A stretch of DNA of 64,000 bases from a virus (taxonomy: Duplodnaviria > Heunggongvirae > Uroviricota > Caudoviricetes): IMG/VR virus record IMGVR_UViG_3300024333_000003; one strand, 5' to 3'. Made by a program: the position numbers and the translations under genes. Below the pieces are notes generated by a model that made no database searches, had not been told where the DNA came from, and saw nothing but the letters and a program-made list of their open reading frames with translations. Below, in pieces: positions 39,394 through 44,984 of the stretch (its first letter is position 1; the number at the start of each line of letters is the position of its first letter).

Positions 39394-39936
39394 ATGGCAG
39401 TACAAGCAAGAAATCGTCTATGCCCAAAATGTAAACGGGAATTAACTGACGAAGAAGAAGCTAAGAAAGTCCAGATGTGCTGGATTTGCTTAGCAGTGTA
39501 TTTAAAGGAAATCGGTGAAGAAGCAACAACACCGGATCCTGGTACGTATGGACGTGTAGCTGGTTATAAGGAACTAGAAACACAATTAAAAACTCAATCA
39601 TTACAGACAATGACAAATAGTTCGGCTCCAACACAACCACAGATAGATACTCCACCGATATCAACAGAGGAAAGAACGGAGATAATAAGACAGTTTGGTG
39701 TTGATCCACTTGCGGCTGCGCCTGTAACTACCATAGTAGTAAAAGGTAGAAATGATGACACTTTTTTACAGTTTTCCACAAGGGGCCTGATTTCGCCCGA
39801 GATGCGTAAAGAGTTTGAGAGATGGATGAAGGTACAATTAGAAGTCATGGGAACAGTCATGACCTTTGGTCCCAATTATGCTAGCACTATTCTTCAAATG
39901 AAGATGATGTCTGGTATGGAGTTTTTAAAAACATGA
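39394..39936 (+). CDS. hypothetical zinc-ribbon protein
   Basis: N-terminal CPKCKRE...CWIC; start chosen downstream of the promoter motif. Confidence 0.4.
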   Translation: MAVQARNRLCPKCKRELTDEEEAKKVQMCWICLAVYLKEIGEEATTPDPGTYGRVAGYKELETQLKTQSLQTMTNSSAPTQPQIDTPPISTEERTEIIRQFGVDPLAAAPVTTIVVKGRNDDTFLQFSTRGLISPEMRKEFERWMKVQLEVMGTVMTFGPNYASTILQMKMMSGMEFLKT

Positions 39937-41078
39937 ACTTAAACGAAAAATTTTTAGAAGTTGAACGCGAGTTGAATGGGCTCTTCGTTGAACGAAATGA
40001 TCCCATAAGAGGAATTATTTTAGCTACTTTAGCTAAAACAAATGTATTATTATTAGGCCCCGCAGGTGTGGCAAAATCTGCATTGATAAAACAGTGGAAT
40101 TATAGAATTACAGGCGCAAAGTATTTTGAGCGGCTGCTAACTAAATTCTCTACTCCCGAAGAAATGTTTGGTCCACCATCATTTAAGGCCATCGAAGACG
40201 ATAGATATATACGAGTGACGGATGGAAAATTAGGTGATCCAGAAATCAATACTGCTTTTATCGATGAAATTTTTAAGGCCAACAGTAGTATTTTGAATTC
40301 AATGTTGACAATTCTCAATGAGCGAATATTTTATAACGATATTACCCCTACCAAATTAAATTTGTTTACCATCGCCGGTGCATCCAATGAAGTACCGGAT
40401 TCAGATGATAACCTTGATGCGTTCTTCGATCGATTCTTACTGAAGTATCATGTGGAATATATAAAAGAAGAAGGCAACTTTCTTAGAATGTTGGGTAGTG
40501 ATTTAGATACCCCTCCAAAAAATACTGTTACCAAAGAAGACATCATAAAGGCACAAAGTGAAGTAAAGGAAATTTTATTTCCATCGGAAATGCAACAGCT
40601 ATATGTTAAAATGCGAAAAACCTTATTTATGGAGTCTTTTCATGTTAGTGATCGTACTTATAAACTTATTATAGGACTGCTAAAGGCGCAAGCATGGCTT
40701 AACGGTCGCAAAAAGATAGATACACCAGACTTTGAAGTACTAAAACACATTGTTTGGACTATACCTGATCAGAAGAAAAAAGCACAATCTTTAATACTCG
40801 ATATTATTGCGCCTGAAAAGAAACGCATACTTGAAATCTTGGAAATGTGTCGGGAAACATACTCGAAAGTATTTGCCAAGAAAGCTGGAAAAGAACGCCA
40901 CAGTGAGGCTATGGAAGCAATCCATAAGCTAAAGGACGCAACAACCGAAGTTACCACGTTAAAAAATATCATGGCACAAAGAGGTACCTCATTGGATGAA
41001 ATAGCGACAGTGGAAAAAGAAATCGAAAGTTTCAAAAAACAACTTCTTGTAGATGAACTAGGTGTCCTTAATTCATGA
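39933..41078 (+). CDS. MoxR-family AAA+ ATPase
   Basis: Walker A LLLGPAGVAKS; Walker B/sensor AFIDEIFKANSSILNSMLTILNERIF matching the MoxR core. Confidence 0.7.
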   Translation: MNLNEKFLEVERELNGLFVERNDPIRGIILATLAKTNVLLLGPAGVAKSALIKQWNYRITGAKYFERLLTKFSTPEEMFGPPSFKAIEDDRYIRVTDGKLGDPEINTAFIDEIFKANSSILNSMLTILNERIFYNDITPTKLNLFTIAGASNEVPDSDDNLDAFFDRFLLKYHVEYIKEEGNFLRMLGSDLDTPPKNTVTKEDIIKAQSEVKEILFPSEMQQLYVKMRKTLFMESFHVSDRTYKLIIGLLKAQAWLNGRKKIDTPDFEVLKHIVWTIPDQKKKAQSLILDIIAPEKKRILEILEMCRETYSKVFAKKAGKERHSEAMEAIHKLKDATTEVTTLKNIMAQRGTSLDEIATVEKEIESFKKQLLVDELGVLNS

Positions 41079-42352
41079 TATCTTTAAATAAGAAAACACG
41101 TAATTTACTAGATAAGATACGTAAGGGTGATAAATACTCCATATCACATGATTCATTCGATCTGGAAAAATTCAAGCACATAAAAGAACGAAGCAAAGAA
41201 TTACTAGATACGGAAGAACTTGGGGTCAAAGACTACCCACAATTTCCAGAATTACTACAAGATACATTTGATGCATTATATAAAAATGAACCTGAAATTG
41301 TAGACGAATGGCAAATGAAGCCCGACTTCATGCTCAACCGCGAAATAGCAAAGAAATTGATGGAAAGCGCACGATATGAAGAATTACGTGTGATGACCAG
41401 GCTTGATGAGTTGTCAAGCGCACTGGGAACCGAAGTGATGTCACAACAACTCATGGAATGGCTAAAAGAGTTAAAGGAACAACGTGAAGCACTAAGCGCC
41501 TTACAACAGGCTGCCGCAGATCTAACTGATGCGGCACAGGAAGAAGGCGATGGCGAGGCCGAGACTGATACCGAAGCTGGCGGATCTGGCAACGTTAAAA
41601 GTAAAACGTCTGAAAAACTCACCCTCGAAGAGGCTATGAAAGCTTATGAGGAAGCAATGAAAAAATTTCAGATGGCCATGGAAGATAGAAAATTCGAACA
41701 AGGTATTGAAAGAATCACTTCCAAAGTAAAAGATTCGGTGCGCGAAACATCGGAGATAATCAGTAATTGTGGTCTCGAGCGTAGTGGAGCTTACTCGAAG
41801 AAACCTGTTAACCAGAAAATGGAATTACTAAATAAACTCAGATCCAGCGCAAAACTACAGCAAATCGCAAGATTGGCCGGAAGATATCGTCGACTTGCTC
41901 TACAAACAAAACGCGAGAAAGTAAAACAAGGAATGGATGAACAACATTCTATTACTCAAGGAAAGGATCTAGGAAGATTGATTCCTGCAGAATGGATGAG
42001 ACTTAAACATCCTTTGACAAAGAAAATGTTCAAGGCAGATTTTATTGAAGGTAAAACCCTGATATATGAAATCCGCGGTAAAGAGAAAAAAGCTCGCGGG
42101 CCTATTATTGTTTGTATGGACGAAAGTGGCAGCATGTCAGGTCTTCCAGAGATCTGGGCAAAATCTGTAGCATTGGCGCTATTAGAGATAGCGCGAGAAC
42201 AAAAAAGAGATTTTTATGTTATACATTTTTCATCTGGATACCGGATGGAAAAACTTCACACCAACGAATTCCTCAAAGATAACTTGTTTGATGTCGAACA
42301 AATGCTGGACATGGCGAGCTACTTTGAAAACGGTAAAAATTTTGCATTTTAG
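41075..42352 (+). CDS. vWA-domain protein partner of MoxR (ViaA/CoxE-like), possibly C-terminally truncated
   Basis: MIDAS IIVCMDESGSMSG only ~80 aa before the stop (a full vWA domain is ~180 aa); ATGA coupling with MoxR. Confidence 0.55.
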   Translation: MISLNKKTRNLLDKIRKGDKYSISHDSFDLEKFKHIKERSKELLDTEELGVKDYPQFPELLQDTFDALYKNEPEIVDEWQMKPDFMLNREIAKKLMESARYEELRVMTRLDELSSALGTEVMSQQLMEWLKELKEQREALSALQQAAADLTDAAQEEGDGEAETDTEAGGSGNVKSKTSEKLTLEEAMKAYEEAMKKFQMAMEDRKFEQGIERITSKVKDSVRETSEIISNCGLERSGAYSKKPVNQKMELLNKLRSSAKLQQIARLAGRYRRLALQTKREKVKQGMDEQHSITQGKDLGRLIPAEWMRLKHPLTKKMFKADFIEGKTLIYEIRGKEKKARGPIIVCMDESGSMSGLPEIWAKSVALALLEIAREQKRDFYVIHFSSGYRMEKLHTNEFLKDNLFDVEQMLDMASYFENGKNFAF

Positions 42353-42376
42353 CAAAATATTTTGTATATTATTAAT

Positions 42377-43622: not shown

Positions 43623-44600
43623 ATGGGAAAGCATTGGACAGAACAAGAACTAAATATACTAAAAGATCAATATAATTGTAAAACACCAAAAGAATTATCA
43701 AAAATACTTAATCGAACATACACGGCTATCCGAGATAAAGCCGAAAATCTAAAACTTCGAAGCTATAAAACATGGTCTGAAAAAGATATACAGATACTTA
43801 AAGAAAATTATGAGTATGGAAACTGGAATTTTTTGACCAAGGCTTTAAAGCGAAAAAAAGCTGCTATAACAGCATATGCTAGAAAATTTAAACTTGTAAA
43901 AAGAACTAGACCTAATATAGCATGGGCGGAAAAAGATCTGTGGTTTCTAAAAGAAAATTATGCAATCATGCCGAATAGGGAATTATCTTTACAGTTAAAT
44001 AAAAGCATTTCGGCATTAACTACAATCGCATATTCTTTAGATCTACACAAAAATAATGGTCCGAAACGAAATCAAACTTACTGTTTGTGGTCGAAGAAAG
44101 ATGTAACACTTTTAAAAAAGTGGTACAAAAGACTAGATGTAAAAAGTCTGGCAATTTTATTGAGACGAAGTACCGCAAGTATACATCATAAACTTCAAAA
44201 ATACGGTATGAAGTTGTTATCATTGCCTCAGTATACATCTTCGTTGGAAGCGAACATGAAGAAGATATTAAAAGAACTAAAAATTCCGTTCGAACATAAC
44301 GTCAAAATTGATCGTTGGCAACTAGATTTTTTAATAGATAAAAAAATAATTTTGGAAATGCACGGATCGTATTGGCACGGAGATAATCGATTTTTCTCGG
44401 ATAAAACTAATAAACAACTGTGCACAATAGAGAAGGATTTTAGAAAGAAAAAATACTTTCTTTCAAAAGGATATAAGTATATAGTAGTTTGGGAATATGA
44501 TTTTTATAACGATATTGAAAAGATTAAAACAGATTTAAGAGCCGTCTTGAATAGTAATATTCAAGAGTACGATTCGGCAAAAACGGTAAATACCCTTTAG
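43623..44600 (+). CDS. Vsr-like homing endonuclease, paralogue of 42377..43306
   Basis: LEMHGSYWHGD...LSKGYKYIVVWEYD; same N-terminal repeat type. Confidence 0.55.
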   Translation: MGKHWTEQELNILKDQYNCKTPKELSKILNRTYTAIRDKAENLKLRSYKTWSEKDIQILKENYEYGNWNFLTKALKRKKAAITAYARKFKLVKRTRPNIAWAEKDLWFLKENYAIMPNRELSLQLNKSISALTTIAYSLDLHKNNGPKRNQTYCLWSKKDVTLLKKWYKRLDVKSLAILLRRSTASIHHKLQKYGMKLLSLPQYTSSLEANMKKILKELKIPFEHNVKIDRWQLDFLIDKKIILEMHGSYWHGDNRFFSDKTNKQLCTIEKDFRKKKYFLSKGYKYIVVWEYDFYNDIEKIKTDLRAVLNSNIQEYDSAKTVNTL

Positions 44601-44780
44601 GGCAATACCGTGCTAAATATAGTAATAATATACTATCTCAGTGTAGAGACTACGAGGTGAACCTAATAAAAGAATATAATCCTCGCATGAGTGCCGAACA
44701 TCTATTTTTTAGATGAAGATATAGTCCGAACTATGAAGCAATTCATAGAAACGAAGATAAAGAGCTTCGTGGTAACATAA

Positions 44781-44984
44781 TTGGAATCTGCCGTTTCTGG
44801 CCAATGGCTAGAAAACTTTAATACATGGAAAAAAGAAAATAAAGTAAATATATACAGTATTTTAATAGATACTGGGCCAAATACTCCTGTGGTTTTGAAT
44901 TTATTCTCCGACAAAGTTGAGAAATTAAGCAGCATGAAACAGGATGCTGATGATCTAGCAATTTCGATCTTTAGTGACATATAA
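44781..44984 (+). CDS. small ORF with TTG start, possible C-terminal remnant of the interrupted vWA gene
   Basis: NIYSILIDTGPNTPVV looks like a terminal vWA beta-strand/loop; speculative. Confidence 0.25.
   Translation: MESAVSGQWLENFNTWKKENKVNIYSILIDTGPNTPVVLNLFSDKVEKLSSMKQDADDLAISIFSDI

Follow-up and report, generated by a model that had tools for sequence, protein, structure and literature searches.

Is a phage gene that stops shortly after the metal-site motif of its vWA domain, directly ahead of two homing endonuclease genes, truncated or merely interrupted? This question arises in a 64,000-nucleotide (nt) stretch of Caudoviricetes DNA, IMG/VR record IMGVR_UViG_3300024333_000003, the whole of which is called the window here. 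In it, a MoxR-type AAA+ ATPase gene (39933..41078, + strand) is followed by a vWA gene whose start overlaps the MoxR stop codon. The vWA open reading frame (ORF; 41075..42352) encodes 425 amino acids (aa) and ends 72 residues past its DESGS motif (349-353). Two Vsr-like endonuclease ORFs and a short ORF at 44781..44984 come next. All of these ORFs, and the copies of an element, TTnGTATATTATT, ahead of the endonuclease genes, were found where a preliminary description, made from the sequence alone, had placed them. It read the locus as a MoxR-vWA pair whose vWA gene had been truncated or split by free-standing endonuclease genes, or as the remains of an intron or intein. The pair itself is borne out, as the MoxR protein matches Pfam bpMoxR (PF20030, 157 bits), AAA_5 and AAA_lid_8 as well as phrog_19600 (ATPase), and the vWA gene adjoins it. 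The vWA partner is very probably a three-exon gene that contains two paralogous, mobile group I introns. Hence the gene is interrupted by mobile elements with Vsr-type homing endonucleases, as had been proposed, but the idea of a truncated or split gene with free-standing endonucleases does not hold, as ribozyme cores overlap the endonuclease ORFs. Neither are these the remains of an intron, as both introns are intact.

The vWA coding sequence lies in three segments on the + strand. Exon 1 (41075..42334) comprises 420 codons, among them those for the DxSxS metal-site motif (residues 349-353); its product ends ...YFENG, and its last base is U. Exon 2 (43484..43579) is 96 nt long, and its 32 codons, GTEFEPPLDWARVKIGDEKQWKKADIIFITDG, form the 'GGT ... 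TDG' portion of the vWA domain, in frame between the two endonuclease ORFs and with the metal-site residues Thr422 and Asp451. It was too short to appear in the ORF list behind the preliminary description, in which both ribozyme cores likewise went unrecognised. Exon 3 (44784..44984) adds 66 codons plus stop (ESAVSGQW...SIFSDI). Joined, the three segments give a 1557-nt open frame with a 518-aa product. This product matches the entire Pfam VWA_2 profile (positions 1-107 of 107; 34 bits, cut-off 27); the 425-aa read-through product of exon 1 by itself gave no match in the Pfam scan.

A search of 5.8 billion proteins yielded 145 homologues of the spliced product, mostly 500-530 aa long and uninterrupted, the best of which are 81% identical and cover 100% of the query. 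With more than 50 uninterrupted homologues, 505-515-aa ones among them, the alignment is gap-free over both junctions. Homologues that end at the same position as the 425-aa product, named beforehand as the observation that would speak against an interruption, did not turn up; instead, the homologues run through both junctions. In 55 full-length homologues, residues D349, S351, S353, G420, G421, T422, D451 and G452 are invariant. The first insertion falls between G420 and G421 and the second directly after G452; in the joined product, the GGT and DG residues of the metal site, which are invariant, are complete again. Of the five metal-site residues (DxSxS, T, D), exon 1 provides D349, S351 and S353, and exon 2 provides T422 and D451, so that the complete metal site of the MoxR-vWA pair is present only in the spliced vWA protein. 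Exons 2 and 3 contain no stops and no frameshifts and keep all invariant residues. The product of exon 3 is 78-96% identical to the C-termini of the homologues at two related loci, L074 and L078. The short ORF at 44781..44984, suspected to hold the missing distal vWA strands, does align with homologue C-termini and supplies these strands; its apparent TTG start (44781..44783) is actually the last three bases of intron 2.

The structure prediction is in agreement with a continuous domain. AlphaFold2 (AF2) modelled the spliced protein with a mean pLDDT of 83.5, and nearly all 10-residue blocks between residues 341 and 500 average at least 85. In the model, exon 2 forms a helix (425-437) and strand beta4 (445-450), and exon 3 forms the remaining two strands and three helices. 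The best Foldseek matches of the model in the PDB are complete vWA domains, including that of NorD in the NorQ-NorD complex.

An uninterrupted gene was sought in related phages and was found, for example in the syntenic relative L001, whose vWA gene is intact (513 aa) and whose DNA is colinear with the joined exons of the window. Across the two insertion points, the intron-less L001 sequence reads TTCGAATGCGGA|GGAACAGAATTT and GTCACCGACGGT|GAATCTGCTGTA. The G+C content is ~0.40-0.45 in the vWA gene vs ~0.30-0.33 over the insertions. A megablast search of the locus against 50,697 phage records gave no match, and a protein search of cultured phages returned distant relatives only (at most 40% identity), with a vWA homologue 32% identical encoded by Bacillus phage 0305phi8-36. 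Public gene calls list the 425-aa protein P0003 for vWA, and exon 3 was called as a small orphan ORF in relatives. On this evidence, the vWA gene appears to be an intact three-exon gene, neither truncated nor split at the protein level.

The two insertions have the anatomy of group I introns. Intron 1 (42335..43483, +; 1149 nt) lies between codons G420 and G421, and intron 2 (43580..44783, +; 1204 nt) directly after D451-G452. In intron 1, the ribozyme core of ~240 nt occupies 43248..43483 (+) and ends with the final G at 43483. By inspection, it comprises the guide GCCGU (43250-43254), P2 (43256-62/43267-73), P3 (43282-88/43396-402), P4 (43292-96/43315-19), P6 (43325-32/43344-51), P7 (43361-65/43423-27), P7.1 (43366-70/43385-89), P8 (43403-08/43411-16), P9 (43432-38/43443-49, with a GAAA loop) and P9.1 (43452-57/43466-71). 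The core of intron 2 (44539..44783, +) has the same set of helices, starting from the guide GCCGUC (44541-44546) and ending with the final G at 44783; its P2 is closed by a GUAA loop, its P7 is GACUA/UAGUC and its P9 has a GCAA loop. In both introns the elements follow each other in the order guide, P2 (GNRA loop), P3, P4, P5, P4', P6, P7, the extra hairpin P7.1, P3', P8, P7', P9 (GNRA loop), P9.1 and the tail ...AUUG. The P3/P7 pseudoknot and nine helices were mapped in both, all helices of both cores are intact, and in both the P5 loop contains the stop codon of the endonuclease ORF.

Several of these helices differ between the introns in a compensatory manner. P3 is UUCAGCA/UGCUGAA in intron 1 and UUCGGCA/UGCCGAA in intron 2, and P7 is GCGUA/UACGC and GACUA/UAGUC, respectively. 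The P7 type of intron 1 (GCGUA/UACGC or GCAUA/UAUGC) recurs in at least six other introns that lie in frame in conserved genes. Covariation was evaluated in an alignment of eight introns, five of them from vWA genes (introns 1 and 2 included) and three of them from other genes. Here, 96.1% of the cells are paired and 39 of the 56 pairs show compensatory changes on both sides; none of 500 shuffles matched this, and slid controls paired 30-42% of the cells. A covariance model built from this alignment, which includes both window introns, found exactly two matches in the 64-kb window, namely intron 1 with 249 bits and intron 2 with 225 bits. With the Rfam group I model RF00028, a scan restricted to 43180..44800 matched intron 2 (44527..44748) over the full length of the model (62.2 bits, gathering score 50, E 5.7e-15).

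The same type of intron is found beyond this locus. A core-pattern search of public contigs gave ~38 loci, two of which (L055 and L062) are chance coding matches, and over the fetched loci the covariance model produced 40 matches with 94% of cells paired. An earlier core pattern with four loci was discarded, three of them being chance matches within one coding sequence. The apparent host genes of the related introns, read from translated ORFs and not checked against family models, are those for anaerobic ribonucleotide reductase, tape measure protein, terminase, capsid protein, DNA polymerase III alpha and Hsp70. At L037 (2207..4666), three covariance-model matches, the weakest with 18 bits, lie on a contig that, judged from translated ORFs, appears to carry an anaerobic ribonucleotide reductase gene. 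Further related introns were found by the model at L004 (several places on a terminase-region contig), L063 and L067, and extra copies occur elsewhere in relatives of the window phage, at L009 (11010..11252) and L074 (12064..12252).

The intron boundaries follow the rules of the class. In both introns, the 5' splice site follows a U (position -1) and the last base is G; the intron ends are ...CAUUG (intron 1) and ...AAUUG (intron 2) and the exon ends ...ACGGU and ...GAUGGU. In both, the guide sits directly 5' of P2. The guide GCCGU of intron 1 pairs with the exon end ACGGU at -6.6 kcal/mol, which ranks it in the best 0.9% of all 11-mers of that intron, and the guide GCCGUC(U) of intron 2 pairs with (A)GAUGGU at -8.6 kcal/mol, in the best 0.4%. 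In the introns of relatives at another insertion point of the same gene (site 0, see below), exon ends are GAGAU and the guide is GUCGU, i.e. guide base 2 has changed from C to U where the exon has changed from G to A. An ORF-less relative at L037 likewise has its guide 5' of P2, with the 5' splice site merely 14 nt upstream. A guide close to the 5' splice site was also sought in the window introns; there is none in the first 45 nt, and a hairpin at 42339..42358 is not complementary to the exon.

From these features the following course of events is proposed. Each intron RNA would fold into a group I ribozyme comprising P2 to P9.1, with the P3/P7 pseudoknot and the extra hairpin between P7 and P3'. 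The guide of 5-7 nt (GCCGU or GCCGUC) would pair with the 3' end of the preceding exon (ACGGU or AGAUGGU) and place a U-G wobble at the 5' splice site, while the final G of the intron would define the 3' splice site. By two transesterifications, the three exons would then be linked in order, and the 518-aa protein translated from the resulting mRNA would possess the entire vWA fold and every metal-site residue. The endonuclease gene, held in a loop of ~0.9-1 kb, is probably transcribed from its own sigma-70-like promoter. Its product would cleave intron-less alleles of relatives that infect the same cell, and repair of the cut allele would introduce a copy of the intron.

Two endonuclease genes were expected to be paralogous from the preliminary description, and they are. 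ORF 1 (42377..43306, +; 309 aa) encodes a Vsr-like nuclease domain after helix-turn-helix-like N-terminal modules, and ORF 2 (43623..44600, +; 325 aa), whose stop codon lies in the P5 loop, is its paralogue, with 31% identity over the full length (E 3e-41). Endonuclease 1 matches Vsr in the PDB (1cw0, E 1.6e-4; 1vsr, E 3.1e-4), the I-Bth0305I structure 3r3p (E 4.6e-4) and Pfam DUF559 (26.4 bits, cut-off 20.6); endonuclease 2 matches the I-Bth0305I catalytic domain in 3r3p with an E-value of 5.5e-8. The alignments show that the catalytic positions are kept in endonuclease 1 (vDfl...iEtNgsyWH...kDrr) and in endonuclease 2 (lDfl...lEmHgsyWH...kDfr). These positions are Asp196, Asn208, His213 and Asp222 in I-Bth0305I and D51, H64, H69 and D97 plus a Glu in Vsr (PMC3239194). 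Both proteins hence belong to the Vsr-like EDxHD (I-Bth0305I-type) family; their homing activity and specificity are predicted. By eye, three to four W-x-x-x-E...L repeats can be made out in the N-terminal halves. Pfam matches there are weak (HTH_50, GcrA and IF2_N, E 1e-3 to 5e-3), and the region matches phrog_323, 'transcriptional regulator', with E 1e-31.

Each endonuclease ORF occupies the interval from the 5' splice site to the guide and extends beyond it: the final 57 nt of ORF 1 and the final 60 nt of ORF 2 also encode the guide, P2, P3, P4 and part of P5. The last ~20 residues of the two proteins (AVLDGDIKEYNSAKSVKT vs AVLNSNIQEYDSAKTVNT) are much more alike than the 31% overall, which fits with the overlap of ORF ends and ribozyme. 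No further copy of either endonuclease was found within the window, and a pattern search of viral contigs for endonuclease 2 gave no match. A protein identical to endonuclease 2 is encoded on seven contigs, the longest of 215 kb. Public calls list separate endonuclease products, P0121 for the second, and one carries the name 'G:T mismatch repair endonuclease'.

The repeated element ahead of the endonuclease genes is part of a larger promoter-like arrangement. Exact copies of TTnGTATATTATT lie at 42361 and 43607. As a genome-wide element it was dropped, since it is not enriched across the genome (six matches with at most one mismatch vs 2.5 expected, equalled by 5 of 100 shuffles), and we re-read it as the -10 part of an intron-internal promoter-like motif. 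In intron 1 this motif (42341..42370, +) consists of TTTGCA, 18 nt and TATATT, contains TTnGTATATTATT and lies 6 nt before the ATG; in intron 2, upstream of 43623 (+), it consists of TTGCTT, 17 nt, TATATT and 6 nt before the ATG. The layout is common to five endonuclease-bearing vWA introns, three of which, from relatives, have better -35 boxes (TTGACT, TTGACA), and the ORF-less intron of L076 retains TTGACT, 17 nt and TATAAA. From comparative conservation, its sole support, we infer a sigma-70-like promoter inside each intron that drives the endonuclease gene. The ATG follows the -10 box at a distance of just 5-6 nt, too short to accommodate a ribosome-binding site, and the endonuclease mRNA would therefore be leaderless. 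The arrangement GTATATT, 5-8 nt, ATG occurs four times vs 1.75 expected by chance, a count equalled by 8 of 100 shuffles. Its other occurrences are at 25470..25485 (-), before a 207-aa ORF (25472..24849) with no Pfam match, and at 53628..53642 (+), before a glycosyltransferase gene (53640..54938). It may represent a promoter type of the window phage that yields leaderless mRNAs.

The introns are distributed patchily among the relatives. Insertions were found at four sites of the vWA gene, here termed 0 (PEI|W), 1a (G|GT), 1b (GG|T) and 2 (TDG|ES), with 1b located 3 nt downstream of 1a. The window and L078 have endonuclease-bearing introns at sites 1a and 2, with sites 0 and 1b empty; the two-intron allele of L078 is near-identical to that of the window and comes from an independent sample. 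In L001, L007 and L008, whose vWA proteins are 80-81% identical, all four sites are empty. L074 (65%) has an intron with an intact 251-aa endonuclease at site 0 and an intron with a frameshifted endonuclease at site 1b, sites 1a and 2 being empty, and L076 has just a 305-nt intron without an ORF at site 0, with 1a, 1b and 2 empty. In L080/L079 (~50%), an intron with an endonuclease occupies site 0 and a further intron occupies site 2, where the endonuclease is 52% identical to endonuclease 2; sites 1a and 1b are empty. Two more cases rest on protein ends and not on DNA: protein P0010 breaks at site 2 with sites 0, 1a and 1b empty, and P0011 breaks at site 1b with sites 0 and 1a empty and site 2 not seen. 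This sporadic pattern, which includes every stage from the empty site to the loss of the endonuclease, is what a homing cycle predicts. The identities between the ribozyme cores (58-82%) do not tell whether intron 1 originated from a site-0 intron or from another source.

Other explanations of the locus have to be weighed against this one. If free-standing homing endonuclease genes had split the vWA gene, its pieces would be translated separately and either reassemble or be lost. Gene callers do list separate products, P0003 with 425 aa and the endonucleases (P0121 being the second), and an in-frame TTG precedes both exon 2 and exon 3. These TTGs are, however, the conserved ...AUUG ends of the introns, and exon 2, with 32 codons and no ribosome-binding site, contributes a helix and a buried strand to the fold. 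Moreover, each endonuclease ORF sits in a complete group I ribozyme whose core overlaps the 3' end of the ORF, and the boundaries conform to the rules of a U at -1 and a final G and restore the frame exactly. We therefore regard a split by free-standing genes as extremely unlikely. The insertions could also be inteins or split inteins with endonuclease domains; in favour of this, Vsr-like EDxHD endonucleases are known from intein contexts, too (PMC3239194). The reading frames refute this possibility, leaving it practically no probability: neither insertion continues the reading frame of the exons, which meets a stop codon five codons past each exon end (KNFAF*, PKNCF*), the endonuclease ORFs start at their own ATG, and no intein splicing-domain family was found in the Pfam scan. 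The intein remains considered in the preliminary description fall with it.

A number of points weigh against two functional introns. The splicing of both in vivo is inferred from sequence features. Intron 1 reaches just 11.6 bits against RF00028, below the gathering score of 50, and deviates from the Rfam consensus in J8/7 and P7. Rfam scans of 38500..48500 (E-value up to 1) and of the whole window (gathering threshold) detected neither intron; for intron 2, which scores 62 bits when just 1.6 kb are scanned, these misses are a loss at the speed filter. The P1 helices are short (5-7 bp) with partners ~0.9-1 kb apart, and no convincing P10 pairing was found for intron 1. Promoter-like matches in the region are not above chance (29 vs 23.3 +/- 4.6). 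Finally, ribosomes on the last 57-60 nt of the endonuclease ORFs would cross the guide and P2-P5 and could interfere with folding. In line with some of these points, the introns might be real but one or both might have lost splicing, which would make vWA a pseudogene and leave the MoxR protein without its partner; besides the divergence of intron 1, the decay of the endonuclease at site 1b of L074 would suit such an erosion. Yet all helices are intact, the P7 of intron 1 has its counterparts in the other in-frame introns, exons 2 and 3 have stayed free of stops and frameshifts with the invariant residues kept, and the two-intron allele recurs near-identically in the independent sample L078. 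Loss of splicing thus appears very unlikely, and two mobile group I introns in a three-exon vWA gene remain the favoured explanation.

A variation on this explanation concerns exon 2. The guide GCCGU is common to both introns, either upstream exon terminates in YGGU, and exon 2 has exactly 32 codons. It is therefore conceivable that the intron 2 ribozyme also pairs with the end of exon 1 and joins exon 1 straight to exon 3. The idea follows solely from the sequences, and we consider it unlikely. If true, skipping of exon 2 would produce an in-frame vWA isoform without T422 and D451, and would amount to alternative splicing by phage group I introns, possibly tuned by translation of the endonuclease ORFs through the guides.

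The closest known system is that of I-Bth0305I, the founding EDxHD member. The recA gene of Bacillus phage 0305phi8-36 harbours a group I intron, 801 nt long, with the ORF for this enzyme, which interrupts P5 and starts 88 nt into the intron (PMC3239194). Common to both systems are a phage group I intron, a two-domain endonuclease with N-terminal modules (putatively DNA-binding in the window proteins) and a C-terminal Vsr-like nuclease, and an intron placed where the host protein has a functional loop of high conservation. Unlike the I-Bth0305I ORF in P5, the window ORFs lie between the 5' splice site and the guide and overlap the guide through P5. Instead of annotated NUMOD motifs, their N-terminal regions have repeats that resemble GcrA/HTH_50 (weak Pfam matches). 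The interrupted gene is vWA and not recA, with two introns and not one.

The T4 genes td, nrdB and sunY contain self-splicing group IA introns with I-TevI, I-TevII and I-TevIII, endonucleases of the GIY-YIG and HNH families whose ORFs lie in P6 or P9 loops, and the T4 host genes belong to nucleotide metabolism. The window introns share with them the extra hairpin between P7 and P3', a looped-out ORF with its own promoter (a predicted one in the window) and a patchy distribution, and differ in the endonuclease families, the ORF positions and the type of host gene. Several group I introns in one phage gene are known from orf142 of Staphylococcus phage Twort, which resembles the vWA gene in having very short internal exons and more than one intron per ORF, self-splicing in Twort and predicted to be so in the window. 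It differs in its host gene and endonucleases, and the window introns are paralogous, use the same guide and lie 96 nt apart. In split phage genes of the mobE type there is no ribozyme and the pieces are translated separately. An endonuclease gene between pieces of a conserved gene is common to these and the window locus, but the window ORFs are flanked and overlapped by complete ribozymes. As to the host gene, the arrangement of a MoxR AAA+ gene adjoining a vWA gene with a complete metal site is that of NorQ-NorD, RavA-ViaA and CoxD-CoxE; different from these, the window pair is phage-encoded and its vWA protein has a long helical N-terminal region.

The order of the MoxR and vWA genes is shared with L001, L074, L076 and L080. 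In L001, an RNA polymerase gene, two small genes, MoxR, vWA, a 60-aa gene and a reverse transcriptase gene follow each other. At L078 (780..1925), MoxR was called as two pieces of 209 and 162 aa, due to a frameshift or an assembly error. The RNA polymerase ORF adjoins the MoxR-vWA pair in all syntenic relatives; in the window (32558..38638, -) it is a single ORF of 2026 aa, an apparent beta/beta' fusion of a multisubunit RNA polymerase, and Rpb2 and Rpb1 domains were called on its counterparts in L001, L074 and L076. On the other side, the window carries a retron-type reverse transcriptase gene at 45903..46919 (PADLOC retron reverse transcriptase models, E 3e-71 to 7e-48; Pfam RVT_1), which occupies the same place in L001, L076, L078 and L079. 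Upstream of it, the non-coding stretch 45197..45440 has a G+C content of 0.45-0.47 vs ~0.33 around it and contains a long hairpin; it has no Rfam match, and with a z-score of -1.57 its fold is not clearly better than that of shuffles. Together, the gene and the G+C-rich stretch possibly constitute a phage-borne retron-like element.

Farther away, the window encodes a Ro60-like protein (22647..24437; Pfam TROVE 132 bits, vWA_Ro60 184 bits) near a single tRNA-Ala gene (21317..21390). At 26862..31167, a D5-like primase/helicase (DUF5906, Parvo_NS1-type ATPase) is followed by a ClpB-like double AAA+ protein (AAA_2 219 bits, ClpB_D2-small). An 826-aa protein with major-vault-protein domains (MVP_shoulder 94 bits, Vault_3 29 bits) is encoded at 49726..52206 and has a counterpart in L001 (12423 onward).

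The introns belong to a known class of element and are ordinary in kind, and our understanding of such elements is unchanged by the finding. New are vWA as a host gene and the set of insertion sites; neither introns in vWA genes nor ORFs located in a P1 loop were the subject of any paper returned by a literature search of incomplete coverage. Somewhat unusual are the internal exon of 96 nt, the position of the ORFs upstream of the guide with an overlap into the ribozyme, and the conserved promoter-like motif just before the ATG. For the annotation of such phages, the locus shows that public gene calls mislead, as they present a 'truncated' 425-aa vWA protein and an orphan exon 3 where the real gene appears to be intact. 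As standard wide Rfam scans miss both introns, counts of such introns in phage metagenomes are probably too low. In the large phages concerned, with contigs of up to 215 kb, the vWA gene has at least four insertion points at or next to invariant metal-site codons, and these are filled in differing combinations among the relatives. Since the stages of the homing cycle are all represented, with empty sites, intact endonucleases, a frameshifted endonuclease and an ORF-less intron, the family provides a compact natural series for the study of Vsr-like endonucleases and intron movement. The overlap of ORF and ribozyme, together with a promoter-like motif of its own for each endonuclease gene, offers a direct way to test how translation and ribozyme folding conflict.

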